A stretch of 32,000 bases of DNA, taken from contig JBHLKY010000020.1 in NCBI GenBank assembly GCA_048886185.1, positions 49,550-81,549 on the forward strand. The letters run 5' to 3'. Shown in pieces: positions 1,844-32,000 of the stretch. The notes below the pieces were generated by a model. The model made no database searches, was not told the origin of the DNA, and worked only from the letters and a program-made list of their open reading frames with translations. This stretch comes from Candidatus Hermodarchaeota archaeon. GTDB taxonomy: Archaea > Asgardarchaeota > Heimdallarchaeia > Hodarchaeales > Hodarchaeaceae. Both the position numbers and the translations under genes were made by a program. The first letter of the stretch is position 1. Every line of letters begins with the position of its first letter.

Positions 1844-4300
1844 GTGAAGAATGAGCTAATATTAGATAATTGGTTTTATAAAATATTTAAAATAAATGAA
1901 AAAGAGATTTTTATTAACAAAGTCAAAAATAATCTATCAATAAGCTCATTAAGGGAAGAATTAAAACCTTTTAGAAATCCTGGTTCACTGCAATCAAATT
2001 TTGTTGAAACAAAGAAATTTAATCCTTATTTTGAAGATAATATAAAAAAAATCACCCATTTAGAAAAATTTTGCTTGTTGTTGATAACTGATTTTTCTCT
2101 AAAAGATCCTAATGATGATTATTTCCTTTGGTTTAGTTATATTGATACAATGGGACAGATCTTTTTGAATGGAGTTGAGATTAAAAATACTGTTAGTGCA
2201 TTTACTCATTATAGGATTCATTTACCAAACGACCTTCTTAAACCGATTAATACTCTTGTTATCATTATTTCTCCACCTATGAGTTTTGTAAACAAAGAGA
2301 TCGATATGGAAGGGGTAGAATACAAAGATCGAGTATATGTTCGACGTCCAGCATATAATTATGGATGGGATTTTGCTCCAAGATCATTGTTAGTGGGTAT
2401 TGGAGAAAGTAAAATCTTTAAGGAGGGAAATATCTCTTTTTCTGATCTATTTATATTGACAAAATCCATTTCAGGTGATTTAGCGAAACTATCGGTTTCA
2501 GTTACCTTAAATAGTGATATAGAGGGAAGAATTGAACTCGAATTGAAAATCATTGACTTATATAGCTATAAACCTGTATTTTCAGAGAATTTTTCACTAA
2601 TCCTTGATCTTGGGTTGAATGAATTGAATAAATCTATTGACCTGAAGAACTATCAGCTTTGGTGGCCGAATGGATTGGGTAATCAACAAATTTATCAGTT
2701 AATCATTTCTGAAAAAGTCACTAACTCCAGCATTGAAACAAGATTCGGAATCAGAACAGTTAAACTTATCTTAAAAGAGGAAGAAGAGAATAAATTCATT
2801 TTTGAGATTAATGGTAAAAGAATATTTGCTAAAGGTGCTAATTGGGTGCCTACTGACTCTTTGACAAATTATGGAACAGAGGAAAAATATAGAAAGCTTT
2901 TAACACTTGCTAAAGAAGCTAATTTCAATATGATTAGGATCTGGGGTGGAGGTGTCGTTGAAAATGATATTTTTTACGATATCTGTGATGAACTTGGTTT
3001 ATTGATATGGCATGATTTCCAATTTGCTTGTAGTATTTATCCTGAGCACAAACAATTTCTTTCTATTGTAGAAGTTGAAATTACTTCCATTGTTACGCGT
3101 TTAAGAAACCATCCTTCAATAATTCTTTGGTGTGGGAATAATGAAAACGAATGGATCGATTTTCAGCATTTTACAAGCAATTTTCGGGAAAATAACAGAA
3201 TTGGTGAAAAACTTCATCAAATAAAGGAGCGAGTATGTTCACAGTTAGATCATTCTAGGCCTTATTGGCGTACAAGTCCATGGAGTCCTTCAGCTGAGAT
3301 CTCTTATGATGTTGACCCTAATTCAATGGATGAGGGGAATTATCATGATTGGTGTGTCTGGCATGGTGTTGGACAGCCGAATTTTGAACCACCAGAATAT
3401 GAAGAGTATAGAAATAACAAAGCGAAATTCATCACAGAATTTGGAATACAGAGTTTTCCATCTAAACATACCATAAACAGAATTTTCAGCAAAAAAACTC
3501 AATCTAAGCCAAATGAGATCTGGAACTTCCATAACTGTGATGTACACAAAATAAAGGTCAATATGAAGAAAATGGGAAATCCAAAAAACATTGATGAATG
3601 GATTCTTTTCACACAAGCAGCCCAAGCATTTGGCATGAAATATGCAATAGAAACGTGGAGAGCTAGGAAATTTGATACTGGGGGAGTATTGGTATGGCAG
3701 TTTAATGAACCATGGCCAACGATCTGTTGGTCATTAATAGATTATTATTTTATCCCTAAAATAGCGTATTGGACATTAAAAAGATCTTTTAAGTTAGTTC
3801 TTATAGTAAAAGTCCCAGATGAGAATAATCTTATCATAATTAATGATTTATTTAAAACTATAAAAGGAACTCTAAGAATTAGAAAATTTAAGTTTAATAG
3901 CGAAATAATACATGAGGAAGATTACAAATTATCGGTTAAATCTAATTCCAAGAAAGAAATTTCCTTAGGATCATTGAACATAAATTTTGATGAGTTTTTA
4001 TGGGCAGAATTTAGAAATAATGACATCATCACAGAGAATATTGTATTACCATGTGATCCAGTAGATATTGACTTTCCTGATCCAACTATCCAGATGAAGT
4101 TAGATAATCAGAGCTTAACTCTCATATCAAAAGAATTTGCATTTTTAGTACATCTTCCTGATGAACTTGAGCCAACTGACAATTATTTTCATCTGATTCC
4201 CAATATTCCAAGAGAAATAAAGCTTAAACACCCTTTAGACAATCAAAAATTAAGAGTTTCAATATGGAATAAACCTCTCAAAGAGATTCGATTAATTTAA
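1844..4300 (+). CDS. glycoside hydrolase family 2, beta-mannosidase
   Basis: GANWVP, RIWGGG, WHDFQFAC, RLRNHPSIILWCGNNE (acid/base Glu), TEFG (nucleophile Glu) and WQFNEPWP motifs. GTG start with GAGGAG SD. Confidence 0.92.
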   Translation: MKNELILDNWFYKIFKINEKEIFINKVKNNLSISSLREELKPFRNPGSLQSNFVETKKFNPYFEDNIKKITHLEKFCLLLITDFSLKDPNDDYFLWFSYIDTMGQIFLNGVEIKNTVSAFTHYRIHLPNDLLKPINTLVIIISPPMSFVNKEIDMEGVEYKDRVYVRRPAYNYGWDFAPRSLLVGIGESKIFKEGNISFSDLFILTKSISGDLAKLSVSVTLNSDIEGRIELELKIIDLYSYKPVFSENFSLILDLGLNELNKSIDLKNYQLWWPNGLGNQQIYQLIISEKVTNSSIETRFGIRTVKLILKEEEENKFIFEINGKRIFAKGANWVPTDSLTNYGTEEKYRKLLTLAKEANFNMIRIWGGGVVENDIFYDICDELGLLIWHDFQFACSIYPEHKQFLSIVEVEITSIVTRLRNHPSIILWCGNNENEWIDFQHFTSNFRENNRIGEKLHQIKERVCSQLDHSRPYWRTSPWSPSAEISYDVDPNSMDEGNYHDWCVWHGVGQPNFEPPEYEEYRNNKAKFITEFGIQSFPSKHTINRIFSKKTQSKPNEIWNFHNCDVHKIKVNMKKMGNPKNIDEWILFTQAAQAFGMKYAIETWRARKFDTGGVLVWQFNEPWPTICWSLIDYYFIPKIAYWTLKRSFKLVLIVKVPDENNLIIINDLFKTIKGTLRIRKFKFNSEIIHEEDYKLSVKSNSKKEISLGSLNINFDEFLWAEFRNNDIITENIVLPCDPVDIDFPDPTIQMKLDNQSLTLISKEFAFLVHLPDELEPTDNYFHLIPNIPREIKLKHPLDNQKLRVSIWNKPLKEIRLI

Positions 4301-7422: not shown

Positions 7423-7851
7423 TTAATTTAATAATTTAAGTTTGAACAAATATTGAAGATAACTACCCTCTCGTTCTAATTTAATTAATAAATCTAATCT
7501 GCTTTGATAAAATTCAATACTTTCATAGAGAAAGGGCAGACGAGAAGAAAAGAACTTCCGTAATTCAGGGTGTGATGTCACCTTCTTATACATTCTAGCT
7601 TTCATTTTTAATAAACAATGACATCCTTTTGTTCTTTGCTTCATTTTATAAATAACGGTTAAAATGTCTTCAAGGTGTTGATCGATATTGTTATATTTTG
7701 CATGCCTGATTTTATGACATATAGAAGATATCTTTCTAAGCTGCCGTAAATTATAGGTCCGATAATGCTCATCATCACTATCTAAGAGTAGAGTTTGTTC
7801 GAAATCAATTATTTTTTTGTTATAAGCTAAAAATTCATGAACAAGTTCCAT
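7423..7851 (-). CDS. hypothetical protein (about 142 aa, helical, basic)
   Basis: ORF with GGAG SD 8 nt before ATG 7851 (ORF track TTG 7869). It fills the gap between neighbouring genes. No family recognised. Confidence 0.6.
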   Translation of the reverse strand: MELVHEFLAYNKKIIDFEQTLLLDSDDEHYRTYNLRQLRKISSICHKIRHAKYNNIDQHLEDILTVIYKMKQRTKGCHCLLKMKARMYKKVTSHPELRKFFSSRLPFLYESIEFYQSRLDLLIKLEREGSYLQYLFKLKLLN

Positions 7852-8067
7852 ATAATTTACTCCAGTCAATTTACATAAAATATAAGTATTATGGAATATT
7901 AAAACCTATCTCGAGAATCTTTCCGGGAATCTATAGCTTCCTTAAAAAGAACAAGGTAAAAACATATTTTTTGTCGGAATTGTTCTTTATACTCTAATTA
8001 CATTTGGGTAAGAAATATCCTTTTGAAGAATTCTATCAGTAACGGAGAATACATCTATTATAATTGA

Positions 8068-8754
8068 ATGTGTATCACTATGTGCTTAGTAATTGAGTGG
8101 CAAGATAAAGGAGAAGAAGTAATATTTCTTATTAATACCTCTATTAAGAAATATAGGGCAGCTCTTAGAAAACTACAATATCCTGAATTAGAAGAGGGGT
8201 TTGGAAGAAGCTTTCCTAAAGATATTCCACACCTAGACAAATATTTCAAGAGATTTAGGAAAATTGCTTTGGAAATGCTCAAACAAACAACCGATGAAGT
8301 ACCTACACCGTGGGAAAAGACATTGATAGCCTTCATGAAATTAATAGGATCTAATCCTCTCCATTGGTGGGTAACAGGAAGTTGTGCGTTGGCTTTATAT
8401 GGTGTGGAGATTTCTCCACGAGATATTGATCTTGTGACAAATTATGAAAGTGCTTTAAAATTGGGGGAACTTCTTGATGATTATATCTACGAACCAGTAA
8501 TTGAACCGCAGGATTGGTTCTGTAAATGGTTTGGAAGAGCATTTTTGCACATGCGAATTGAATGGATTGGAGGAGTATATGAAGACGAAAGCATACAGAT
8601 TCAGAAAGATTTTGGTTATTTAGCAGAAAAGCAATTACAAAATATAAAGTGGAGAAATTATGTCATAAAAGTACCACCATTAGAGACCTTATTAGAGCAG
8701 ACTGAAAGACGTGGATTAGATAGTAGAGCTGAAAAGATTAAAAAAATGTTGTAA
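8068..8754 (+). CDS. nucleotidyltransferase-family protein (Pol-beta superfamily) with N-terminal extension
   Basis: WWVTGSCALALYG...PRDIDL signature (GS plus DxD). The start could be ATG 8080. Confidence 0.8.
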   Translation: MCITMCLVIEWQDKGEEVIFLINTSIKKYRAALRKLQYPELEEGFGRSFPKDIPHLDKYFKRFRKIALEMLKQTTDEVPTPWEKTLIAFMKLIGSNPLHWWVTGSCALALYGVEISPRDIDLVTNYESALKLGELLDDYIYEPVIEPQDWFCKWFGRAFLHMRIEWIGGVYEDESIQIQKDFGYLAEKQLQNIKWRNYVIKVPPLETLLEQTERRGLDSRAEKIKKML

Positions 8755-8758
8755 TTAT

Positions 8759-9532
8759 TTAATCGATTGTGTTCCAACGGCGGTCTTTCATATCCTGCTC
8801 ATAACGATTAAACCATCCTTCACTCGGTTGAGGCCAGTCCCTGAAATTTAATAATAAATCATAGAACTCTGTTGCGGTTGTTAAGCAAGGATTTTGTATT
8901 AATTTCTTCATAAAATAAATAAAATCTTTGGGTTTCTTTTTTGCTTCCTCTAACTGGTTCAAAAACCACTTTCGACCAGGATAAAACATCTTATTATGAG
9001 TTAAAATCATTCTCCCTCCAAATAATGTTATGAGTATTGCTGTTTGGTATAAAACATAAATATTTTTACTATAATGTCCATATTCAAGATAAGAATAATG
9101 CATCTTGACTTGACTATAAAAACATTCTAATCTATTTTCAATATTAGCAGAAGGAAATGTAGTAATTTGCTTCAATAAAGTATCTAGATTTGGTACTTTC
9201 GAAAAAATAACGTTTGATCCAACAAAAGCATACCTAGAAACATCAGAACCATTGTTAATTAGCCACTTCAACATATTCACAGTCTTTGCAGACCCATTTG
9301 CTTCAATACAAGGAGGAATACAAAAAGAATTAATATTGAATTGGATATCGGAATTACGTTCTCTAGTTTTATACTCATCATCTGATACCACTAAAATGAA
9401 ATCAATATCAGATTCAGGGCCTGCTGACCCACGAGCTACAGAGCCGTTAGTGATAAAAGCTAAAACATTTGGATCGTGAATGAAATGCAACTTAATGTTA
9501 TTTATAATCTGCTTATGATGTTCATGGAGCAT
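8759..9532 (-). CDS. nucleotidyltransferase domain protein (Pol-beta superfamily) with C-terminal helical domain
   Basis: GSVARG...SDIDF signature followed by a helical C-terminal half. Confidence 0.85.
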   Translation of the reverse strand: MLHEHHKQIINNIKLHFIHDPNVLAFITNGSVARGSAGPESDIDFILVVSDDEYKTRERNSDIQFNINSFCIPPCIEANGSAKTVNMLKWLINNGSDVSRYAFVGSNVIFSKVPNLDTLLKQITTFPSANIENRLECFYSQVKMHYSYLEYGHYSKNIYVLYQTAILITLFGGRMILTHNKMFYPGRKWFLNQLEEAKKKPKDFIYFMKKLIQNPCLTTATEFYDLLLNFRDWPQPSEGWFNRYEQDMKDRRWNTID

Positions 9533-12188: not shown

Positions 12189-13022
12189 TTATGGGGGATT
12201 GAATTTTACTATTGAAGCTTCAATCTTCTCCCCAAGAACAGTAGGATTCAGGGAACCTAGATCATACTTCTCTGCTTCAACCAAGTGAAGAACTTCTTCA
12301 GGTTTAAATCCCATAATCCTAGCCATAGTGGCATCTGTTGACACAGCTTTCCTTCCTATTATGAATCTATCTAAGCGTCTTGATTTTGGCCCTGCCCAAC
12401 CCTCAAGACCTACTCTAGCGTCAACAATACAGAGGTTAGGCCGAACTAACCTATTTATGTCAACAATTACATCGTTAATATGGGGATGATAAAATGTTTG
12501 ATCCTTTCTAGGGAGTAGGCCAAAAGCATTCTTCAATGTTCCAGTTAAAAAAGTCAAGAAATGAGTTTTTGCTACTGCTAAAGAAATTAAAAACTTTGAA
12601 CCAAGAAGAATCTCAGGTAACTTGGGATTCTTAAAATACCTTCCTTCGAAATTGATTTCAATTGTTGGGGAATGAGTAAGATTAATTAATGATACATCAG
12701 AGCCAGACATTTGCATTTTTTCTTCTAAACTTTTATAACCAAATTTGATATAAGCTTCATCAGCAAACTTGCTTGTACTGTCTGACTCCACAATTTTAAT
12801 AGATAGATCTCGGTTTTCTTTAAGAATCAATTTTATTAACGCTTCAACTACTAGTACATCATTTACTGCAAAACCAGTCTTATCTACCTGCGTACAAATA
12901 TTTGGTTTGATCAAGACGGGCGATTTCAGGTTCTCAAAACCATTAATAAGACCAATACCATTCTCTAGAGTCTTTCTGATATTTTTTTCATATTTCACCA
13001 AAGCTACAGAATCCAATATCAT
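12189..13022 (-). CDS. DUF362 domain-containing protein
   Basis: VLIKPNI, IVESD, KTH...TGTLKNAFG and DATMARIMGF motifs. Starts 23 nt after the LLM gene. Confidence 0.85.
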   Translation of the reverse strand: MILDSVALVKYEKNIRKTLENGIGLINGFENLKSPVLIKPNICTQVDKTGFAVNDVLVVEALIKLILKENRDLSIKIVESDSTSKFADEAYIKFGYKSLEEKMQMSGSDVSLINLTHSPTIEINFEGRYFKNPKLPEILLGSKFLISLAVAKTHFLTFLTGTLKNAFGLLPRKDQTFYHPHINDVIVDINRLVRPNLCIVDARVGLEGWAGPKSRRLDRFIIGRKAVSTDATMARIMGFKPEEVLHLVEAEKYDLGSLNPTVLGEKIEASIVKFNPP

Positions 13023-13045
13023 CAGCTACCACTAAAAGCTATTGT

Positions 13046-13900
13046 CTAATCAACATTGGGAGGGCCTCTTTGAATACGTGTGAGAAGCTCTTCTTCAGTA
13101 CCAATCCAATCATTGATGTGTTCCATAAACCAGGTTGCCCCAGCTTCAAACCATGGCTGAACGATTTCGGTATCTTTCGACGTATCAATGCCTGTAGTTG
13201 TACCACCACCTACAACTTCAAACCCTTCAAGATTACCTCTCTTATTCTTTATAATGTTTAATACATCTTTTAACTTGTCAGGACCAAATTCAACACCAAA
13301 CTCTGCTGCAGGAACAACACCTTCATAATTTGCAGCACGATAAAAAGGTAATTTATTAGGCCAATATCCAGCAATCCAAATGGGAATTCTTGGTTCCTGA
13401 AGTGGTTTAGGAATAAATGTTACCTCTTTGATAGTAAAATGTTTACCATTATAAAAGAAGGGTTTTCCTTCCCATAATCCTATAAGAATCTCTAAACCTT
13501 CATCAAGTTTTTCAGCTCTGATTCTTGGCTCCACTGGCTCATTAAAAAGCTCAAATTCCTCAAAAGTACCTCCTAATCCAAAACCAAGTATCAGTCGTCC
13601 TCCTGATAAGTGATCCAAAGTGACAGCTTCTCTCGCCACTTTCCATGGTCTCCTACGCGCCAAAGGTGTCACCATAGGCCCCAGTTTTATTCTTTCAGTT
13701 TTTGCTGCAACAGCGGACAGGATTATCCAAGGATCTAATACTTTTAATGTGTGATTATCCCAAAAACCCCAAATATGGTCCCAGATGAAAAAACCATCCC
13801 ATCCCGCATCTTCAGCTGCTTCTGCGCAATCAATGTGAAATTCAATTCCCTTCTTCTGGTGTCGACCTATAAAACATATTATATTGATTCCATACTTCAC
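13046..13900 (-). CDS. LLM-class flavin/F420-dependent oxidoreductase (paralog of 6560-7399)
   Basis: WDGFFIWDH, DPWIILSAVAAKT, RRRPWKVARE and LDHLSGGRLILGFGLG. GTG start. Confidence 0.92.
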   Translation of the reverse strand: MKYGINIICFIGRHQKKGIEFHIDCAEAAEDAGWDGFFIWDHIWGFWDNHTLKVLDPWIILSAVAAKTERIKLGPMVTPLARRRPWKVAREAVTLDHLSGGRLILGFGLGGTFEEFELFNEPVEPRIRAEKLDEGLEILIGLWEGKPFFYNGKHFTIKEVTFIPKPLQEPRIPIWIAGYWPNKLPFYRAANYEGVVPAAEFGVEFGPDKLKDVLNIIKNKRGNLEGFEVVGGGTTTGIDTSKDTEIVQPWFEAGATWFMEHINDWIGTEEELLTRIQRGPPNVD

Positions 13901-21584: not shown

Positions 21585-22541
21585 CTAAGAATACGTAGAA
21601 TTCTGATAAACACGTATATAGTCAACAATCATTGTTTGAGGGAAAACAGAGTCGTCGATACCATAAAGACCACCCCAAGTACCACCAACAGCAATATTTA
21701 AAATCCAGTAAAAATTTTGGTCGAATGGCCAGGTGTAAGCGGATGCATTCACCTCTTTTTGAAATGTAAAATACTTTATATCATCCACAAAAAAATCAAT
21801 ACGATTGGGAAACCATTCAATGGCATAGATGTGGAATTGTTCCTCACATGTAGCCATAAAAACAGACCCCCCTTGTTGAGTACCCTTCAGATGATTATAA
21901 GCATCACAATGAATCGTTCCATGAATAAGCCCAGGTTGATATCCCACATATTCCATTATATCTATCTCCCCACTTTCGGGCCAGCCACCATAAACACTAC
22001 TTTGGGGCATCATCCAGATAGCAGGCCAGAGTCCTCGGCCATGTGGCAATATTGCACGAGCCTCAAATCTACCATATGTCCAATAAGCCTTTGATTGGGT
22101 ATTTATCCGTGCGGAAGTATATTTAATACCTATTTTATCACTCAATACCGCTTTTATTATCAAGGTTCCATCTTCTACATAGGAATTATTTAGATCCTTT
22201 ACATACTCCTGTTCTTCTTCATTTACCCATCCAGGTCCACGCCATTCAAAATTCCATTTGGATTCATTGGGAAAACCAGAATAATTAAACTCATCAGACC
22301 AATTTAACTGCTCCCAAAGATAAGAAGAATATTGCACCTCAAGGAAAGATGGTTCAGGTTCCTCATCGATTGGGTTGGGTTCCTCAGTTTCTTCAGGTTC
22401 CTCATTCGTTTGTTCATTTGTTGTATTGTTAGAATCAGGGGTTATAGATGGAGTATTTAGGTTAAAAAGAGCTAGAAATGTGACTCCAATTAATAAAAGA
22501 GACATTGAACCTCCAATCATTAATATTCTGCGATAAGACAT
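21585..22541 (-). CDS. glycoside hydrolase family 16 (laminarinase-type beta-1,3-glucanase), N-terminally membrane anchored
   Basis: N-terminal TM helix, E/P/N-rich linker, WSDEF, YTSARI, GLWPAIWM and the catalytic WPESGEIDIME motif. Confidence 0.92.
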   Translation of the reverse strand: MSYRRILMIGGSMSLLLIGVTFLALFNLNTPSITPDSNNTTNEQTNEEPEETEEPNPIDEEPEPSFLEVQYSSYLWEQLNWSDEFNYSGFPNESKWNFEWRGPGWVNEEEQEYVKDLNNSYVEDGTLIIKAVLSDKIGIKYTSARINTQSKAYWTYGRFEARAILPHGRGLWPAIWMMPQSSVYGGWPESGEIDIMEYVGYQPGLIHGTIHCDAYNHLKGTQQGGSVFMATCEEQFHIYAIEWFPNRIDFFVDDIKYFTFQKEVNASAYTWPFDQNFYWILNIAVGGTWGGLYGIDDSVFPQTMIVDYIRVYQNSTYS

Positions 22542-22610
22542 AATTTCACTGTATCTTGAGGATATTATTAAATTTTTCTGTTAGATCACAAAGGAGGAAG
22601 TTGTAAGCCA

Positions 22611-23609
22611 TTATAGTATCGAATTGGTGCGAATAAATTCAATAAGATCATCTACCTGAGTATATGCTATACAGGTCACTGTATCTGCCGCCCCATAATA
22701 GATAGCTATACGTCCTGTTGTTGCATCCGCTAATGCAGCGCATGGAAAAACAACATTAGGTACATCACCAACACATTCATACAATCTTTGAGGGGAAAGA
22801 ATATAAGGCCCCGTTCGATATTTTACATTCCAAGGTTGAGTAATATCAAGTATAGCAGCTCCCATGCTGTAAACAAAGCCATTACATGATGTTATTACAC
22901 CATGATATATCATAAGCCAGCCCTCAGTTGTTTCAATTGGAGTAGGACCAGCTCCAATCTTTGTTGATTGCCAACCAAAATTAGTGGCCATAACCTGACG
23001 ATGATGACCCCAATGAATCATATCAGGGCTTTCACTGTAGAAAATGTCTCCCCACGGTGTGTGTCCTCTATCACTTGGACGACTCAACATTGCATATTTT
23101 CCATTGATTTTTCGCGGAAAAAGAACACCATTCCGATTATATGGTAAAAAAGCATTTTCTAGTTGGTGAAATTCCTCAAAATTATGAGTATATGCCATAC
23201 CAATAGTTGGCCCATAATACCAATTACACCAAGTCACATAGAAGCGATCTTCTAACCAACATACCCTAGGATCATATCCATAAACAAATGTAGCGATATC
23301 AGGATTTTCACATTTAAAAGAAATTGGATCATAATCGATATCCCAATTTATGCCATCCACACTTCTTCCTTGATGGAGTCGCATATTTCTATATTTATCG
23401 TCACACCTAAAAATCCCAGCAAAGTTGCCATTAAACGAAACAACAGCACTATTAAATATACTGTTAGATGAAGGTATTAAATCTCTCGGAATAATAGGAT
23501 TTCGTTCTGATCGCCAAACCACATCTTTGTAATCTCTTGGTTTTTCTTCCCAAGGTATATTTGGTAAATCTTCACCAAGGATCGTTTTTCCAGATACCTC
23601 TTTTCCCAT
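22611..23609 (-). CDS. glycoside hydrolase family 130 beta-mannoside phosphorylase (GH130_2-like)
   Basis: [51 protein letters not shown] and GDVPNVVFP motifs. Confidence 0.93.
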
Positions 23610-26147: not shown

Positions 26148-26891
26148 TCAAAGATATTTTTGAAGCCAATTGATGCTTTCTTCAATAAATTCCTCTAATT
26201 GATCATTATTGAACATATGGTCGGCATTTTCAACCAAGAGGAGCTTATGGTCAATGTTCGAAGGAAAATGACCTTCAGCCTTTTTGGATAATTCTGGTTT
26301 AACAGTTTTATCTAACTTTCCATGAATAATTAATGATGGATATTTAAATTTTCGAAGATATTTCTCAGTATCGATTTCTTTTAATTCATGAACGAAATCT
26401 TCCTCAATGTATATTTCTGGGGGAGAAGCAGAGAGTAATTTAAATGGAAAGTGATTATAAAGTGAATTATTAGTAATATTTTCCAAATAAAATGCAGGGG
26501 CCCAAAAGATAGCTGTTCGTACTGGAAGATTTGCAATGAGAGCGGTTAAGCCCCCAAAACTCAATCCAATTATGCCAAAATCAACATAATCTAATTTTTT
26601 AAGCCAATCATAAACATCTACTAAATCCTGAACCTGCTGGGATAATAATACAGGTTCTCTTTTATTTTCTCCAGAACCAGAAAAGTCAAAGATTATGGCA
26701 TCAAATCCCTTTTCATTTAGCCTTTTTGCAGTTTTAGGAAATCGTCCCCATTCATATTTGTCACCTGTAAAGCCATGACATAAAATTACTAATGGGGATT
26801 TTTTCTTGGTATTTGTTGATGTCTCAAATAATATCGAAATTAACTCTCCCCCATTTCTTTTCGGAACTTTTATTTTTCTTTGTAGTATTAT
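26148..26891 (-). CDS. alpha/beta hydrolase (about 247 aa), non-canonical ATA start
   Basis: The frame is open from TAG 26909-26907 to the stop ending at 26148. It encodes LVILCHGFTG, FDFSGSGE, GLSFG (Ser), HGKLD (Asp) and ADH (His). No ATG/GTG/TTG lies before the nucleophile elbow, so the ORF-track call at 26564 is truncated. Confidence 0.82.
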   Translation of the reverse strand: MILQRKIKVPKRNGGELISILFETSTNTKKKSPLVILCHGFTGDKYEWGRFPKTAKRLNEKGFDAIIFDFSGSGENKREPVLLSQQVQDLVDVYDWLKKLDYVDFGIIGLSFGGLTALIANLPVRTAIFWAPAFYLENITNNSLYNHFPFKLLSASPPEIYIEEDFVHELKEIDTEKYLRKFKYPSLIIHGKLDKTVKPELSKKAEGHFPSNIDHKLLLVENADHMFNNDQLEEFIEESINWLQKYL

Positions 26892-27078
26892 ATTCTCACC
26901 AATTTGCTAAATTTTGCTATTATCGAAAGATAAAGGTAAAAAGGATTTAATCTTTTTACACAGGTGTGATAGGACTCTAATTATAGATAGATTTTTATAT
27001 TTCATTCATAGACTATTTAATTTCTTGCTATTAGTATAAGTTATAAAATTTGAAAAATGAACATTTTGTGGGTCTAAA

Positions 27079-30000
27079 ATGGATGTCACGATAAGGTTGA
27101 TGAATAATCAAACCTTTATAATTTCAAAATATGTTTTTCCCGAATTTAATGAAGAAGTTAAAAAAGAAATAAACATAAGACAACTTGCAATAAAAATCTT
27201 CAATATAGTTAACATTTTTGGTCCTAAAGCCCTCGTTCTTGAATGTGAGGATAAAACTCTTCAATCATATCTCATAAATTCTTTGAGTTTATATCTTCAG
27301 GATAATTTCACATTTGAAAAATTAGGTGGGGGGATTCAGATTTTGACTTCTCTTCCTTTTCATAGTGAAGAACCAATTTCTTTAACTTCCAAGATAAAAA
27401 AGTTAGGTCAGTTTGAAAATCAAATAGGGCTGGGTATTGAAATTCAGGGAAAAACGATTAACGGAGTATGCATTGATGGCAATGGAAACATCATTAAACG
27501 ATCAAAAAGAAGTATAAAAAAAGAAGAAGGCTATAGATCAGTCATTAATAGTATTATCGACTTAATCAAAGAACTATTGGAATCTTTGAATCCAGAGAAA
27601 ATTAAAAGCGTGGGGATTGGCATTCCTGGTGGAATCAGCCCTATAGTTGTCAGAAGAATGATAGCTATGGGAGATTTTCATGATATTAATCTCAAAGGTG
27701 AAATAGAAGCAGCTATTGGCCACCCTACATTTATTGAAAATGATGCCAACGTCATTGCTTTAGGAGAAAAAGAAATTTCAAGAATTGAAGGAGATTTTTT
27801 CACTCTCACTCTCGGAGAGAGTGTTGGTGGAGGTATCATAATTAATGATCGAGTAATTCATGGAGAAAACTATTTTGCAGGAGAATTGGGACATATAATA
27901 GTCGATGACGCTATTGATGCACCTGTTTGTGGTTGTGGGAATACTGGCTGCCTTGAAGCTAGAATGTCAACCATTTCTGATCTTAATGAGGAGAATTTGG
28001 ATGAGATTGCTAAAGATGTTGCCAAAGCGATTAGAATCATCGTTGATCTAACAAATATTAACCAAGTGCTTATTGGGAGTAGCGTCACAAAATTTGGGTA
28101 TAATTTTTATGAAGCCGTACGTCATAATTTAGAAACCCAGTTTATCCCAAAAACAACCCCTGTTCAAGTCTATGAATCATCATTAGAGAGATTTCCTGAA
28201 ACTGAACGCAAATTCATTGGAGCGATTGGTGCTGCTATTATGGGGATGCAAAAAGTAGGAGAAATATCTGAAAAAGTTGTAGTAGTTATCAAAAAAGACG
28301 ATCAAGAAATGGGAAAAGCAGCTGCAAGAATAATTTCTGAACAGATCAGGAGAAAACCAAATACAGTGTTGGGATTAGCAACTGGGAGTACTCCTATCAG
28401 TATGTATAAAGAATTAGTTCGAATGCACAATGAAGAAAATCTAGACTTTTCAAAGGTTACAACTTTCAATCTTGATGAATATTATCCCATAGAAAGAGTA
28501 AACAATCAAAGTTATTACAGCTTCATGCATTATTGGCTGTTCGACCAAATCAATATCAATCTAGAAAATGTTCATATCCCCGATGGAGAATGGTCAGAGA
28601 AAGATCTAGAATCTAACTGTGAGCAGTTTGAACAGCTAATCAAGAAAGCAGGAGGAATTGATATTCAGATCTTAGGGATTGGTGAGAGTTTTTTCACAGA
28701 GAAGAGAGAAATTCATGGAGGGCATATTGGATTTAACGAATCTGGCTCTGATTTCTCCTCTCGGACTAGGAAGGTGATTTTAGCAGAAAAAACTCGTGTA
28801 GATAATTCACGATTTTTTCAAAGTATTGAGGAAGTTCCCCGATATGCAATTACTATAGGAATAGGTACAATTTTAGATGCAAAAAGAATAATACTGCTAG
28901 CTTCTGGAGAGCATAAAGCCCTTATAATCAAGGAAGCTGTCGAAGGTAAAATTACTCCTTTTATACCCGCAACGGTATTACAAACTCATGCAAACACAAC
29001 CTTTCTAATAGAAGAGGGAGCAGCATCGAAATTAAGTCGAATGTCTTATCCATGGTTATTTTTCGATATGGATTGGATGAAAGAAACTGATAAAAAGAAA
29101 ACAGATGAAGTTAAAATTGATGAAGCGTTGATTTGGCTCTCATTGACCACAAAGAAACCATTGACCCAACTTGATTTACAAGATTTTCACAATAATTTCC
29201 TTTCAGATCTCCTGCAACTTTTTAACTACAATGTTCCTAGTTTGACTAGCAAGGTGATTGCAAGGATTAATAATAAGATACGTTTTAAAGAAAAACTACC
29301 AAGGCATAAAAAGATATTGGTCGTTTCTTGTCGCCCTGGTGATGATGGTGTTATTGCTGATACCGTTAGAGCTTTGGTTAGTAACGAAAACAAGTTAAAA
29401 ATAATAAATATGGTAAGTGGTAACATTAATGTGAAAAATTCTGATGTTATTGATTACTGTGAAGAGAATCTTTTCGAAGAATCAATTAAAGAAAGTGTTC
29501 TAAAAAATCGTATCGATGTATTCGAATTATTGAAGTTAAAAACTCTTGTTAGGAAATCTGAATCAATTGATATGCATAAATATCTAGGAATCTCTTCTGA
29601 AAATCAATTTTTCTTGAATTTACCTTTCTATGAAACAAGAACTATCGAAAAAATCATTGAAATCTCCGATATAGATATTATACCACTGGTTACAATTCTA
29701 GACCAAGAACAACCAGAGATTATTTTAATTCTTGGAGGAATCACTGATCCACATGGACTCAAAGCAAGAATAGTAGAAATCTTTGAATTAGCATTAAAAA
29801 GGTCTGGAATTCAAAAAACTGAACTCTGGTACTATAAGACAACTATGGAGGAATTCTCTGTTGCAAGAGGAGATATTATCGTTCCATTCACTGAAAAAGA
29901 CATGGATCTTAAAGTAATTGCCATTCAAAGATTAAAGAGTCAACAAGTTGTCGATTTTCTAGCAATTCCTGGATATGATCCACGACCGCTTTGGGAACGT

Positions 30001-30117
30001 ATTAAAGAACGAAATCGAGCTATTGGTTACATCCTTAAGACAACGGGTTTAGTTCCTGACGAATATAATTATGGATCAATTTACCAAGTTTCTCAGTACA
30101 TTAAAGACACGAGATAG
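27079..30117 (+). CDS. nagB: fusion protein: ROK domain + glucosamine-6-phosphate deaminase (NagB) + degenerate PIG-L/LmbE-like domain
   Basis: ROK (aa ~116-392): GIGIPG, ENDAN, GGGIIIN, GELGH, CGCGNTGCLE. NagB (aa ~400-653): LGLATGSTP, FNLDEY, GHIGFNE. PIG-L-like (aa ~744-1000): SGNI, LNLPFYET, DPHG. Confidence 0.88.
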   Translation: MDVTIRLMNNQTFIISKYVFPEFNEEVKKEINIRQLAIKIFNIVNIFGPKALVLECEDKTLQSYLINSLSLYLQDNFTFEKLGGGIQILTSLPFHSEEPISLTSKIKKLGQFENQIGLGIEIQGKTINGVCIDGNGNIIKRSKRSIKKEEGYRSVINSIIDLIKELLESLNPEKIKSVGIGIPGGISPIVVRRMIAMGDFHDINLKGEIEAAIGHPTFIENDANVIALGEKEISRIEGDFFTLTLGESVGGGIIINDRVIHGENYFAGELGHIIVDDAIDAPVCGCGNTGCLEARMSTISDLNEENLDEIAKDVAKAIRIIVDLTNINQVLIGSSVTKFGYNFYEAVRHNLETQFIPKTTPVQVYESSLERFPETERKFIGAIGAAIMGMQKVGEISEKVVVVIKKDDQEMGKAAARIISEQIRRKPNTVLGLATGSTPISMYKELVRMHNEENLDFSKVTTFNLDEYYPIERVNNQSYYSFMHYWLFDQININLENVHIPDGEWSEKDLESNCEQFEQLIKKAGGIDIQILGIGESFFTEKREIHGGHIGFNESGSDFSSRTRKVILAEKTRVDNSRFFQSIEEVPRYAITIGIGTILDAKRIILLASGEHKALIIKEAVEGKITPFIPATVLQTHANTTFLIEEGAASKLSRMSYPWLFFDMDWMKETDKKKTDEVKIDEALIWLSLTTKKPLTQLDLQDFHNNFLSDLLQLFNYNVPSLTSKVIARINNKIRFKEKLPRHKKILVVSCRPGDDGVIADTVRALVSNENKLKIINMVSGNINVKNSDVIDYCEENLFEESIKESVLKNRIDVFELLKLKTLVRKSESIDMHKYLGISSENQFFLNLPFYETRTIEKIIEISDIDIIPLVTILDQEQPEIILILGGITDPHGLKARIVEIFELALKRSGIQKTELWYYKTTMEEFSVARGDIIVPFTEKDMDLKVIAIQRLKSQQVVDFLAIPGYDPRPLWERIKERNRAIGYILKTTGLVPDEYNYGSIYQVSQYIKDTR

Positions 30118-30141
30118 TTTTTCTTATGGAGTAAGAATACA

Positions 30142-32000
30142 ATGACAAGCAAAATTTCTTTGAATAAAGAATGGAAAATGCAATCTTCTGACAAGTTATC
30201 AAAGCATGGTGAAATAATTTCTACAACGGAATTCATCCCAGAAAATTGGTATACTGTCGATGTACCGACAACTGTGGTAAATGGTCTTGCCGTTAACGGT
30301 GAATTTGATTTTAAAAACCCTTATTATGGATTAAATCTAAAATCCATACCTGGTCTTAAAGGAGATATAAAAAGACAGAATTATGAGAGTCGATATAAAC
30401 CTGAAGATAGCCCATTCAGAAAACCATGGTGGTTCAGAAAGGAGTTTATAATAGATGAGGATCATCATAAGAAAGAAACTTGGATAGCTTTTGATGGTAT
30501 TAATTATTCTGCAAACATCTGGTTAAATGGTAGACGGATTGCCGGTTCTGACTATGTTATAGGAACGTATCGGCGATATGACTTTAATGTCACACATTTT
30601 GTGAATCCAGGCATAAATATTCTTGCATTAGAAGTGTTTTCTCCAAATCCTGACGATCTGGGGATTAGTTTTGTTGATTGGAACCCTATGCCTCCTGATG
30701 ATAACATGGGAATTTGGCAACCAGTGTACTTATATTCAACAGGTCCTGTGGCAATAAAATTTCCTTTTGTGAAAAGTAAATTAAACATTGAATCATTAGA
30801 AGAAGCTGAATTAATAATTACTGCAGAATTTCATAATACACAATCAGAATGTGTCAATGCTATTGTGGAAGGAAAAATAGAAAAGGTCAGTTTCCAAAAA
30901 GAAATTTTTCTTGACTCTAAAGAGAAGAAAAACGTTATCTTCTCATCTGAGGAGTTTCCACAACTGATGATAAAAAATCCACGAATATGGTGGCCCTATC
31001 AACTTGGATCTCCTGAATTATATAAACTGGATCTTAAAATTCGTGTTAATGACAAAATCTCTGATAGGCATGAAATTACTTTTGGGATAAGAGAAATTAG
31101 TTCTTATATAAATGAATATTCTTCAAGTAAACTCACTATAAAAAGTCGTATAATCTCAAAGTCAAACCAGAAGGTCGGATCCCGTGTTTTCACAATTAAT
31201 GGTCATGATATTCTACTCCGAGGCGCTGGTTGGACCTGTGATATGATGCTTGCTCAATCTAATGAACAAGATGAAATTGATGTTGCTTTTCTTAAGAATC
31301 TTAACATGAACGTGGTACGTTTTGAGGGGAAACTCGCAACTGACAATTTTTGGGATGTTTGTGATAGGGAAGGCATACTCATTCATGCTGGATGGGTTTG
31401 TTGTAGTCATTGGGAAAAATGGAACCAGTGGAAAACAGGTGATATCGAAGTTGCAGAAGCATCGTTACGCTCTCAAATTCTTCGTTTACGTAACCATCCA
31501 AGTTTTTTAGCTTGGTTTTATGGAAGTGATTTCCCCCCACCGGAGCATGTTGAGAAAGTATATCTCAATGTGTTAGAAAAAACTTATAATGAGCTTTCAA
31601 AGATTTCTAGTGCCACTGCTTATCCAACAAAGTTGACAGGGGAAACTGGTGTGAAAATGACTGGCCCATATACCTATGTTCCCCCTTCTTACTGGTATAC
31701 TGATGGAAGAGTAGGAGCTGCAGATAAATTTAATACTGAAACAGGACCAGATGTATGTATTCCTCCTTATGAAAGCTTAAGAATAATGCTTCCTGAATCC
31801 CAACTTAAAATTGGAAGTGAGGGGTGGAATTATCATACAGGACTAGGTGCTTTTGCTGACACAAAACTTATAGAAGAAGTTATTACAAAACGATATGGTA
31901 AACCTGTTTGTCTTGAGGATTTCTCAAAAACAGCACAAATTCTAGGTTATGAATGCTGGAGAGCAATGTATGAAGCGCATTTAAGAAATTACCCTAAATC
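30142..32000 (+). CDS. glycoside hydrolase family 2, exo-beta-D-glucosaminidase (CsxA-like), 3' partial
   Basis: Open frame of 619 codons from ATG 30142 (GGAG SD at 30128-30131) to the window end, absent from the ORF track. Motifs DWNPMPPDDNMGIW, RFEGK, GWVCCSHWE, RLRNHPS..WFYGSD (Asp463 acid), GPYTYVPPSYW and FNTETG (Glu533 nucleophile). Confidence 0.9.
   Translation, partial: MTSKISLNKEWKMQSSDKLSKHGEIISTTEFIPENWYTVDVPTTVVNGLAVNGEFDFKNPYYGLNLKSIPGLKGDIKRQNYESRYKPEDSPFRKPWWFRKEFIIDEDHHKKETWIAFDGINYSANIWLNGRRIAGSDYVIGTYRRYDFNVTHFVNPGINILALEVFSPNPDDLGISFVDWNPMPPDDNMGIWQPVYLYSTGPVAIKFPFVKSKLNIESLEEAELIITAEFHNTQSECVNAIVEGKIEKVSFQKEIFLDSKEKKNVIFSSEEFPQLMIKNPRIWWPYQLGSPELYKLDLKIRVNDKISDRHEITFGIREISSYINEYSSSKLTIKSRIISKSNQKVGSRVFTINGHDILLRGAGWTCDMMLAQSNEQDEIDVAFLKNLNMNVVRFEGKLATDNFWDVCDREGILIHAGWVCCSHWEKWNQWKTGDIEVAEASLRSQILRLRNHPSFLAWFYGSDFPPPEHVEKVYLNVLEKTYNELSKISSATAYPTKLTGETGVKMTGPYTYVPPSYWYTDGRVGAADKFNTETGPDVCIPPYESLRIMLPESQLKIGSEGWNYHTGLGAFADTKLIEEVITKRYGKPVCLEDFSKTAQILGYECWRAMYEAHLRNYPK

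Follow-up and report, generated by a model that had tools for sequence, protein, structure and literature searches.

Two described systems are among those closest to the locus reported here. In CsxA, an exo-beta-D-glucosaminidase, as summarised in a review on GlmA from archaea, Glu394 binds the amine at C2 of the sugar and Asp469, with a Ser before it, is the acid/base (PMC6566704). The 2025 subdivision of glycoside hydrolase family 2 (GH2) assigns beta-glucosaminidases to subfamily GH2_16, in which a strictly conserved SD stands in place of the usual NE motif, and a Glu in place of a His that other GH2 groups conserve (PMC12243196). The second system is the chitin route of Thermococcus kodakarensis, where ChiA and uptake are followed by the PIG-L family deacetylase Dac, the exo-beta-glucosaminidase GlmA, phosphorylation and deamination to fructose-6-phosphate (PMC6566704). 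Here we describe a pair of genes in a 32,000-nucleotide (nt) stretch of a Candidatus Hermodarchaeota archaeon assembly (GCA_048886185.1, contig JBHLKY010000020.1; the window, G000:C20:49550-81549, where G000 is the code of the host genome) that encodes a four-module fusion protein with a glucosamine-6-phosphate deaminase (NagB) at its core, followed by a GH2 enzyme. We give a probability of roughly 60% to the reading that the pair belongs to a conserved Asgard operon that salvages beta-linked glucosamine (GlcN) in the cytoplasm and yields fructose-6-phosphate. A literature search that left subscription journals outside its scope found no paper on an Asgard GH2 glucosaminidase route or chitin route or on this fusion, and nothing relevant on carbohydrate-active enzymes of Hodarchaeales, on a NagB-LmbE fusion or on the function of its two-domain form. 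An earlier reading made from the letters alone (the sequence-only reading) had supposed such a module to be undescribed in Asgard archaea, and this agrees with what we found. The two genes and their parts, in window coordinates, are:

26910..27078 (+), AT-rich upstream region with a TATA-like TATAAAAT about 35 nt before the fusion start codon (sequence read); candidate archaeal promoter for the pair
27079..30117 (+), four-module fusion gene, 1012 amino acids (aa): N-domain, ROK, NagB, PIG-L-like
27079..27423 (+), orphan N-domain, residues 1-115, predicted beta-beta-alpha-beta-alpha-beta
27424..28272 (+), ROK (ASKHA) domain, residues 116-398 (Pfam, Foldseek, motifs)
28273..29052 (+), NagB glucosamine-6-phosphate deaminase domain, residues 399-658 (NCBIfam, PDB match, motifs)
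29053..30114 (+), linker and PIG-L/LmbE-like (Dac-like) domain, residues 659-1012 (profile, hhalign)
30118..30141 (+), spacer of 24 nt between fusion and GH2 (sequence read)
30142..32000 (+), GH2 gene, 5' 619 codons (open reading frame (ORF) 30142-31998, 3' open), predicted cytoplasmic, GH2 subfamily 16 type by its CsxA match

The sequence-only reading had placed a GH2 gene with no signal peptide and with GSD and NTETG motifs 24 nt after the fusion, and ORFs 27079-30117 and 30142-31998 bear this out. The best solved match of the GH2 protein is CsxA (PDB 2vzs, E 1.2e-102), with the next GH2 structure at 3.5e-15 (phmmer), and the alignment covers residues 13-618. Within it, GSDF 461-464 (nt 31522-31533) places D463 on Asp469 of the CsxA GSDF, FNTETG 530-535 (nt 31729-31746) places the nucleophile E533 on Glu541 (FNSETS), and RFEG 393-396 places E395 on Glu394 (RLEG). 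The Ser-Asp acid/base and the Glu-for-His replacement of GH2_16 are thus both present, and the Glu of RFEG is kept in 30 of 30 homologs checked. Several orthologs are labelled exo-1,4-beta-D-glucosaminidase by the JGI pipeline. The protein is probably a CsxA-type (GH2_16) exo-beta-D-glucosaminidase, the assignment first proposed for it. No hydrophobic N-terminus was seen in it or in 22 relatives (at least 54% identity to an Asgard ortholog), of which the named ones are all Asgard; some bacterial homologs carry a signal peptide. The enzyme is predicted to be cytoplasmic, again as proposed. The expectation that the gene simply runs on past the window failed: it is cut after 619 aa, and about 250 C-terminal residues are missing because a 100-N scaffold gap directly follows the window. 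Full-length orthologs have 845-868 aa.

Could the enzyme be a beta-mannosidase, or have some other GH2 activity, that serves nearby GH130 and mannosidase genes and stands next to NagB by coincidence? A GH130 gene and a mannosidase-like GH2 do lie in the same window, and weak Pfam Mannosidase_ig matches occur in orthologs. However, the acid/base motif is SD rather than NE and a Glu stands where mannosidases have Trp (PMC12243196), the match to CsxA beats that to the best mannosidase structure by 87 orders of magnitude, and the mannosidase-like GH2 of the window is just 23% identical to this enzyme. The Ig_GlcNase domain (PF18368) is present in every full-length ortholog, that of the sister species G068 (82% identical) among them; the corresponding region of the window gene falls in the gap. 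Adjacency to the fusion is, moreover, kept across families, and we regard a mannosidase as very improbable.

The fusion, which had been read as two modules, has four. It matches Pfam ROK (PF00480, 4e-35) and Glucosamine_iso (6e-17), and its residues 395-991 exceed the PRK02122/NF002557 cut-off across both the NagB and PIG-L domains (474.5 bits versus 384). Residues 402-655 score 275.6 bits against the TIGR00502 equivalog cut-off of 236.9, with Bacillus subtilis NagB as the best PDB match (2bkv, E 6e-58). Against that protein the catalytic motifs are intact (NLDEY 464-468, GHIGFNE 548-554), and the NagB module is very probably active. A 10-residue insert, ESFFTEKREI (residues 538-547, window 28690-28719), sits just before GHIGFNE; it is absent from B. 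subtilis NagB, and the other fusions examined have an insert at the same place. No second NagB copy was found in the genome by tblastn with the NagB domain of the fusion.

The C-terminal third tells a different story. When a profile of this module was built from 17 relatives, its best matches among solved structures were diacetylchitobiose deacetylases of Pyrococcus and Thermococcus (3wl4, 8bgo, 3we7, E 3e-9), hhalign pairs the module with the genome's own Dac-like protein at 95.5% probability, and PF02585, which gives no match in this fusion, is matched in its relatives; homology to the PIG-L family is clear. In place of HPDD stands R752-P-G754-D755 (nt 29326-29346), in place of HxxH stands H892-G-L-K895 (nt 29746-29763), and hhalign places the HGTH of the family on the HPDH of Dac, in which the second His serves as third zinc ligand. 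The positions of Dac His40, Asp42, Asp43 and His151 are occupied by Arg752, Gly754, Asp755 and Lys895, so that the general base is lost along with two of the three zinc ligands. This loss is common to the whole clade of the fusion, and the PIG-L module is, judging by these residues, very probably inactive as a catalyst. The host genome also encodes four stand-alone PIG-L proteins, one of which is Dac-like (E 2e-29) with HPDD and HPDH intact.

Is the ROK module still a kinase? Its fold is confirmed by Foldseek matches to ROK kinases and repressors (1e-20), and the sugar and zinc side is kept: D222 lies in ENDAN, GELGH spans residues 268-272, and CGCGNTGC at 284-291 supplies C284, C286 and C291. 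On the nucleotide side, phosphate-1 DxGGT reads EIQGK (E121-I-Q123-G-K125), phosphate-2 GTG reads GES (G-E247-S248) and the adenosine motif GGG reads GSS (333-335); none of the three canonical ATP-binding motifs is present. Q123 recurs in an independent 99%-identical assembly. The proposed chain from GlcN to GlcN-6-phosphate (GlcN-6-P) to fructose-6-phosphate consequently stands at its NagB end, where the motifs are intact, and is doubtful at the GlcN to GlcN-6-P step, because three ROK ATP motifs are degenerate. The module is the sole ROK match in the host genome, and provisionally we treat it as the only candidate of its family for GlcN phosphorylation and as the weak link of the route, with the odds that it is still a kinase slightly short of even. 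Its sequence does not decide between GlcN and N-acetylglucosamine (GlcNAc) as substrate.

The N-domain has no Pfam match. A search of 1.84 billion representatives returned a full-length match only to the representative of the fusion family itself; one weak match (P0352) reached back just to query residue 48, and the domain is so far confined to sequences that are either Asgard-named or without a name. AlphaFold2 predicts a confident small alpha/beta unit (predicted local distance difference test about 90), for which Foldseek found nothing in the PDB at E<=0.001 and an Atlas feature search gave chance-level scores only. In the exhaustive aligner VIA-align the top rows, at Z 5-6.8, are mainly second lobes from ROK proteins, which hints weakly that the N-domain may be an extra ASKHA-like lobe.

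The pair is real and conserved but patchy, an accessory nutritional module rather than a hallmark of the lineage. Distribution was counted across 400 species genomes from the phylum. Of the 21 species in the genus, 5 have the fusion, whole or in part (three of them at full length); a few other families have it too, and GH2_16 occurs in 14 of the 400 genomes. Six genomes (G000, G067, G074, G068, G065 and G138) have both, always adjacent, on the same strand and with the fusion upstream, and the pair is also seen on further metagenomic contigs. Spacers measure 30-45 nt in the five other genomes versus 24 nt in G000, where a GGAG Shine-Dalgarno-like motif lies about 10 nt before the GH2 ATG and no room is left for a promoter. 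The claim of a two-gene unit holds in that the pair is operon-like in six genomes with spacers of 24-45 nt, but the unit is not closed: past the gap in G000 follow a GH94 phosphorylase gene, a 714-aa GlmM-like mutase, then, encoded on the opposite strand, NagA (334 bits versus a cut-off of 225.7), and an SIS protein. The mutase (C20:84092-86236) is far longer than usual phosphohexomutases, a length conserved in G068, and scores far under the GlmM cut-off (138 bits versus 447.55). In G065 (C1:668971-671971) only a PIG-L-like part remains as a 418-aa frame, next to a GH2_16 gene with an in-frame TAA, and this pair looks like a decaying copy.

In G000 the modules are not decaying. Codon comparisons with the orthologs in G067 and G074 and with a 61%-identical relative gave ratios of nonsynonymous to synonymous substitution rates (dN/dS) of 0.07-0.10 for ROK, 0.09-0.19 for the PIG-L core, 0.09-0.19 for the N-domain and 0.05-0.08 for NagB. 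All modules, the degenerate ones included, are under purifying selection, and the degenerate ones are kept for a role other than, or beyond, their ancestral chemistry.

How did such a protein arise? In a maximum-likelihood tree of the NagB and PIG-L region (45 sequences, midpoint root), a long branch parts an archaeal clade from a bacterial one, the archaeal two-domain forms are basal, and the four-module forms make up one clade (support 100/99). Within it, the clade with the dead metal site (100/100) is sister to a Helarchaeota-type clade with intact HPDD and HGTH. Since the tree is rooted at its midpoint, the order of events can be given only conditionally. The archaeal NagB-PIG-L proteins make up a deep clade of their own, with the bacterial clade as its sister, and so are not a recent import; the description of the locus as built from bacterial-type parts was for this reason only half right. 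The Helarchaeota-type relatives have intact deacetylase motifs and near-canonical kinase motifs (DIGGHS, GTGVGGG), and the ancestor was plausibly a deacetylase-kinase-deaminase fusion. On the contigs examined, it is always a GHMP GalK-like kinase, and not GH2_16, that comes after these intact 1044-aa fusions. They lie near zinc alcohol dehydrogenases, thiamine pyrophosphate enzymes and HGSNAT-like acyltransferases, surroundings that suggest a different amino-sugar context, perhaps that of N-acetylgalactosamine. One bacterial two-domain NagB-PIG-L gene has NamZ, GH3 and a beta-lactamase-like gene before it and, immediately after it, a BcrAD_BadFG (ASKHA) kinase, with an amidohydrolase on that side as well, and looks like part of a cell-wall amino-sugar recycling operon. 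Coupling of this deaminase-deacetylase to a kinase is thus a recurring theme.

We tentatively hypothesize, with odds well below even, that when GH2 was recruited as operon partner both enzymes flanking NagB lost catalysis and were kept under strong selection as sugar-sensing or assembly modules that control it. If true, enzymes would have been turned into built-in regulators in one Asgard lineage, with an orphan ASKHA-like N-domain besides. A strict correlation of a dead PIG-L with a GH2 partner was ruled out by the more distant G138 fusion, which pairs with GH2_16 and has HPDD intact, with HGTQ (the last His lost). What correlation there is rests on at most two or three lineages, kin not being independent, and is suggestive.

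The homologies, the state of the motifs, the conserved gene order and the selection acting on each module are observations; for the salvage reading we infer the substrates, the sequence of steps, the kinase activity and the part played by the dead modules as follows. Oligosaccharides with GlcN at the non-reducing end would be imported, possibly from chitosan, from partly deacetylated chito-oligomers or as GlcN-GlcNAc made by the separate Dac-like deacetylase. GH2_16 would free GlcN by a retaining mechanism with Asp463 as acid/base, Glu533 as nucleophile and Glu395 reading the C2 amino group. The GlcN would be phosphorylated, provisionally by the fused ROK module with its atypical ATP site, and the NagB module would turn GlcN-6-P into fructose-6-phosphate and ammonium. 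The PIG-L module, its metal site gone, would no longer deacetylate, and together with the orphan N-domain it may be retained non-catalytically for ligand binding, assembly or regulation. N-acetylated sugars could enter through the downstream GH94 phosphorylase, GlmM-like mutase and NagA, which would also supply GlcN-6-P to NagB, or by way of the separate Dac-like enzyme.

An alternative hypothesis is that the fusion is catalytically a deaminase only. The ROK and PIG-L modules would then be amino-sugar-binding pseudoenzymes, serving as allosteric sensors or scaffolds for NagB, and GlcN-6-P would come from GH94 (sugar-1-phosphate) via the mutase (sugar-6-phosphate) and NagA, or from an unrelated kinase. 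Such a view would account for ATP motifs that are degenerate in all GH2-linked lineages and wholly gone in G138 with the sugar and zinc motifs kept, for the lost PIG-L metal site and for the strong purifying selection on both modules. It also fits the position of GH94, mutase and NagA directly downstream in G000 and G068 and of GH94 beside GH2_16 in four further, fusion-free genomes. However, GlcN freed by GH2 would still require a kinase, and the genome gave neither a second ROK nor an ADP-dependent kinase, nor any homolog of those PfkB or BadFG kinases which adjoin relatives elsewhere. Furthermore, the change of the phosphate-1 Asp to Glu is conservative, the catalytic Asp222 is kept, and G067 and G074 have the pair with no mutase or NagA nearby. 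We consider a deaminase-only fusion possible, if on the unlikely side.

Several observations weigh against glucosamine salvage by the pair as set out above. The three ATP motifs of the ROK module differ from the canonical ones in 18 of 18 stand-alone ROK-family proteins, and the ROK domain of the G138 lineage is retained beside GH2_16 without any ATP motif, so that this domain need not be a kinase. The GH94 is nearer to cellobiose phosphorylase (499 bits) than to chitobiose phosphorylase (426 bits). No GH18 match was found in the genome (chitosanase families were not searched), and no transporter lies inside the pair. A T5 run directly after the stop codon of the fusion, the one feature that might speak for some termination, could act as an archaeal terminator, although runs of this kind are probably common in such AT-rich DNA. 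Finally, the surrounding island is one of general beta-glycan use (GH16, GH130, mannosidase-like GH2, GH116, GH3, GH1, GH94), and the amino-sugar reading therefore rests on the pair itself.

The composition of the island also bears on a related question, namely what the natural substrate might be. Within an island for general glycan scavenging, the same enzymes could act not on chitosan but on other de-N-acetylated glycans from dead cells, such as deacetylated peptidoglycan or poly-N-acetylglucosamine, GlcN disaccharides of the lipid A type, or glycoprotein and N-glycan remnants. The missing GH18 would be in keeping with this, as would neighbours such as GH130, the mannosidase-like GH2 and GH16, or GH20, GH116 and GH3 in relatives, and the bacterial two-domain gene beside NamZ and GH3 cell-wall recycling genes. 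On the other side, the substrates of CsxA and of its characterised relatives are beta-1,4-GlcN oligomers (PMC6566704). Nothing in the sequence discriminates between linkages, and the natural substrate could be chitosan-type oligomers or other de-N-acetylated glycans; we consider a substrate other than chitosan rather unlikely.

Gene order in related genomes places the pair in its wider setting. In G068 a single ungapped contig (C164) reads fusion, GH2_16 (868 aa), GH94 (94% identical), mutase and NagA. In G067 and G074 the GH2 gene is followed by adh, GH116, another GH94 and GH3; the G000 orthologs of GH116, the second GH94 and GH3, with an ABC permease and GH20, whose counterparts in sister genomes lie directly beside GH2_16, are on contig C22 (306-24693), which indicates that the glycan island was rearranged within the genus. 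Loki-type genomes without the fusion have GH2_16 beside GH94, Opp/Dpp-type ABC transporters, an MFS permease or a PfkB kinase, and GH94 recurs in this position in four of the fusion-free genomes. The suggestion to look beyond the window was thus rewarded with GH94, mutase, NagA and SIS genes, but no GH18 was matched anywhere in the genome.

The host, for which the sequence-only reading had considered an Asgard origin, belongs to the Hodarchaeales/Heimdall group of Asgard archaea. Its assembly comprises 4.84 Mb in 75 contigs, is 96% complete with about 35% GC, and encodes an actin homolog (E 1.8e-132); no small-subunit rRNA was found in it. Full-length homologs of the fusion (82-85% identity) carry the labels Hodarchaeota, Hodarchaeales or Promethearchaeota (Hodarchaeales/Heimdall metagenome-assembled genomes and one closed genome), and GH2 orthologs are labelled Hodarchaeota, Heimdallarchaeota and Lokiarchaeota. 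Might a bacterial contig have been mis-binned into this archaeal genome? The families concerned are common in bacteria and the contamination estimate of the bin is 5%. However, the string GH16, GH130, ABC permease, glyoxalase, ThuA, fusion, GH2_16 is identical in a single-contig 4.9-Mb genome of the same genus, which effectively rules mis-binning out; the named close homologs are all Asgard, the fusion belongs to an archaeal clade far from the bacterial one, and the GC of the contig agrees with the rest of the genome.

The scaffold join past the window end deserves a separate comment. Contigs from four runs on the source sediment show loose ends on both sides of the 100-N gap and none bridges it; one of them carries the GH2 reading frame 196 nt past the window end. 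The join is credible, since G068 has the same order on its one ungapped contig, which is 10.2 kb long. A 1412-aa frame that reads through the gap and joins GH2 to the GH94 gene was dismissed as an artefact.

Some neighbouring features may be recorded here. The mannosidase-like GH2, GH16 and GH130 phosphorylase genes share the window at 1844-4300 (+) and 21585-23609 (-), and the nearest models of the GH130 are beta-mannobiose phosphorylases, well under cut-off; these genes may represent a beta-mannoside or N-glycan branch of the island. An alpha/beta hydrolase lies at 26148-26909 (-), where the longest ORF with a canonical start (26148-26564) spans only the C-terminal part of the fold, and an ortholog of it is called at 212 aa. 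In the Loki-type genome G176 (C58), two identical 454-aa genes that flank GH2_16, which were at one point considered transposases, are GH1 glycosidases; they are 100% identical (7631-8995 and 12471-13835) and reflect a local duplication or an assembly artefact.

Eukaryotes have their closest known relatives in the Asgard archaea, about whose diet experiments have so far shown little. To our knowledge, an enzyme of the GH2_16 type has so far been characterised only in bacteria and fungi. The locus predicts that in some Hodarchaeales and Loki-type lineages oligosaccharides containing glucosamine are taken up and burnt by means of this type of GH2. Its most unusual feature is the module architecture of the fusion, which provides a compact test case for the evolution of pseudoenzymes: because intact, partly lost and fully lost sister proteins exist in related genomes, the effects of motif loss are directly measurable.

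How, then, does the locus compare with the systems described? Relative to CsxA of Amycolatopsis orientalis (PDB 2VZS, 2X09), the Asgard GH2 shares the Ser-Asp acid/base, the Glu nucleophile and the Glu that binds the C2 amine. CsxA, however, is a secreted protein of 1032 aa with a C-terminal carbohydrate-binding module, whereas the Asgard enzyme is predicted to be cytoplasmic, has 845-868 aa and is paired with a NagB fusion.

The Thermococcus route follows the same logic as the route proposed here. In T. kodakarensis an ADP-dependent sugar kinase and the SIS-type deaminase GlmD act after GlmA. The glucosaminidase is GH35 in Thermococcus and GH2 in the Asgard pair, the Asgard deaminase is of the NagB type, and the Asgard kinase candidate is a ROK protein and not ADP-dependent. 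GH18 (PF00704), GH35 (PF01301), GH42 (PF02449) and the ADP-dependent kinase (PF04587) all gave no match in the 96%-complete genome, and the enzymes GH18, GH35-type GlmA and ADP-dependent kinase of a Thermococcales-type pathway are accordingly unmatched, although a stand-alone Dac homolog is present. Thermococcus Dac is homologous both to this host protein and to the C-terminal module of the fusion, which is very probably dead here. The sequence-only reading had called the unit distinct from the known archaeal chitin pathway; this applies to the unmatched families but is too strong as a whole, because the C-terminal third of the fusion is a PIG-L domain whose closest solved relatives are the Thermococcales Dac enzymes.

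The fusion itself has two kinds of relatives. The PRK02122/NF002557 proteins (about 610-680 aa; Gemmatimonadota, Bacteroidota, Loki/Helarchaeota) have NagB and PIG-L in the same order, to which the Asgard clade adds the N-domain and ROK, while the clade of this gene lacks the PIG-L metal site. The Helarchaeota-type fusions of 1044 aa form the sister clade and have the same four modules at 54-58% identity; unlike the 1012-aa fusion, they keep HPDD, HGTH and near-canonical kinase motifs, and they are followed by a GHMP kinase in the place that GH2_16 holds here.

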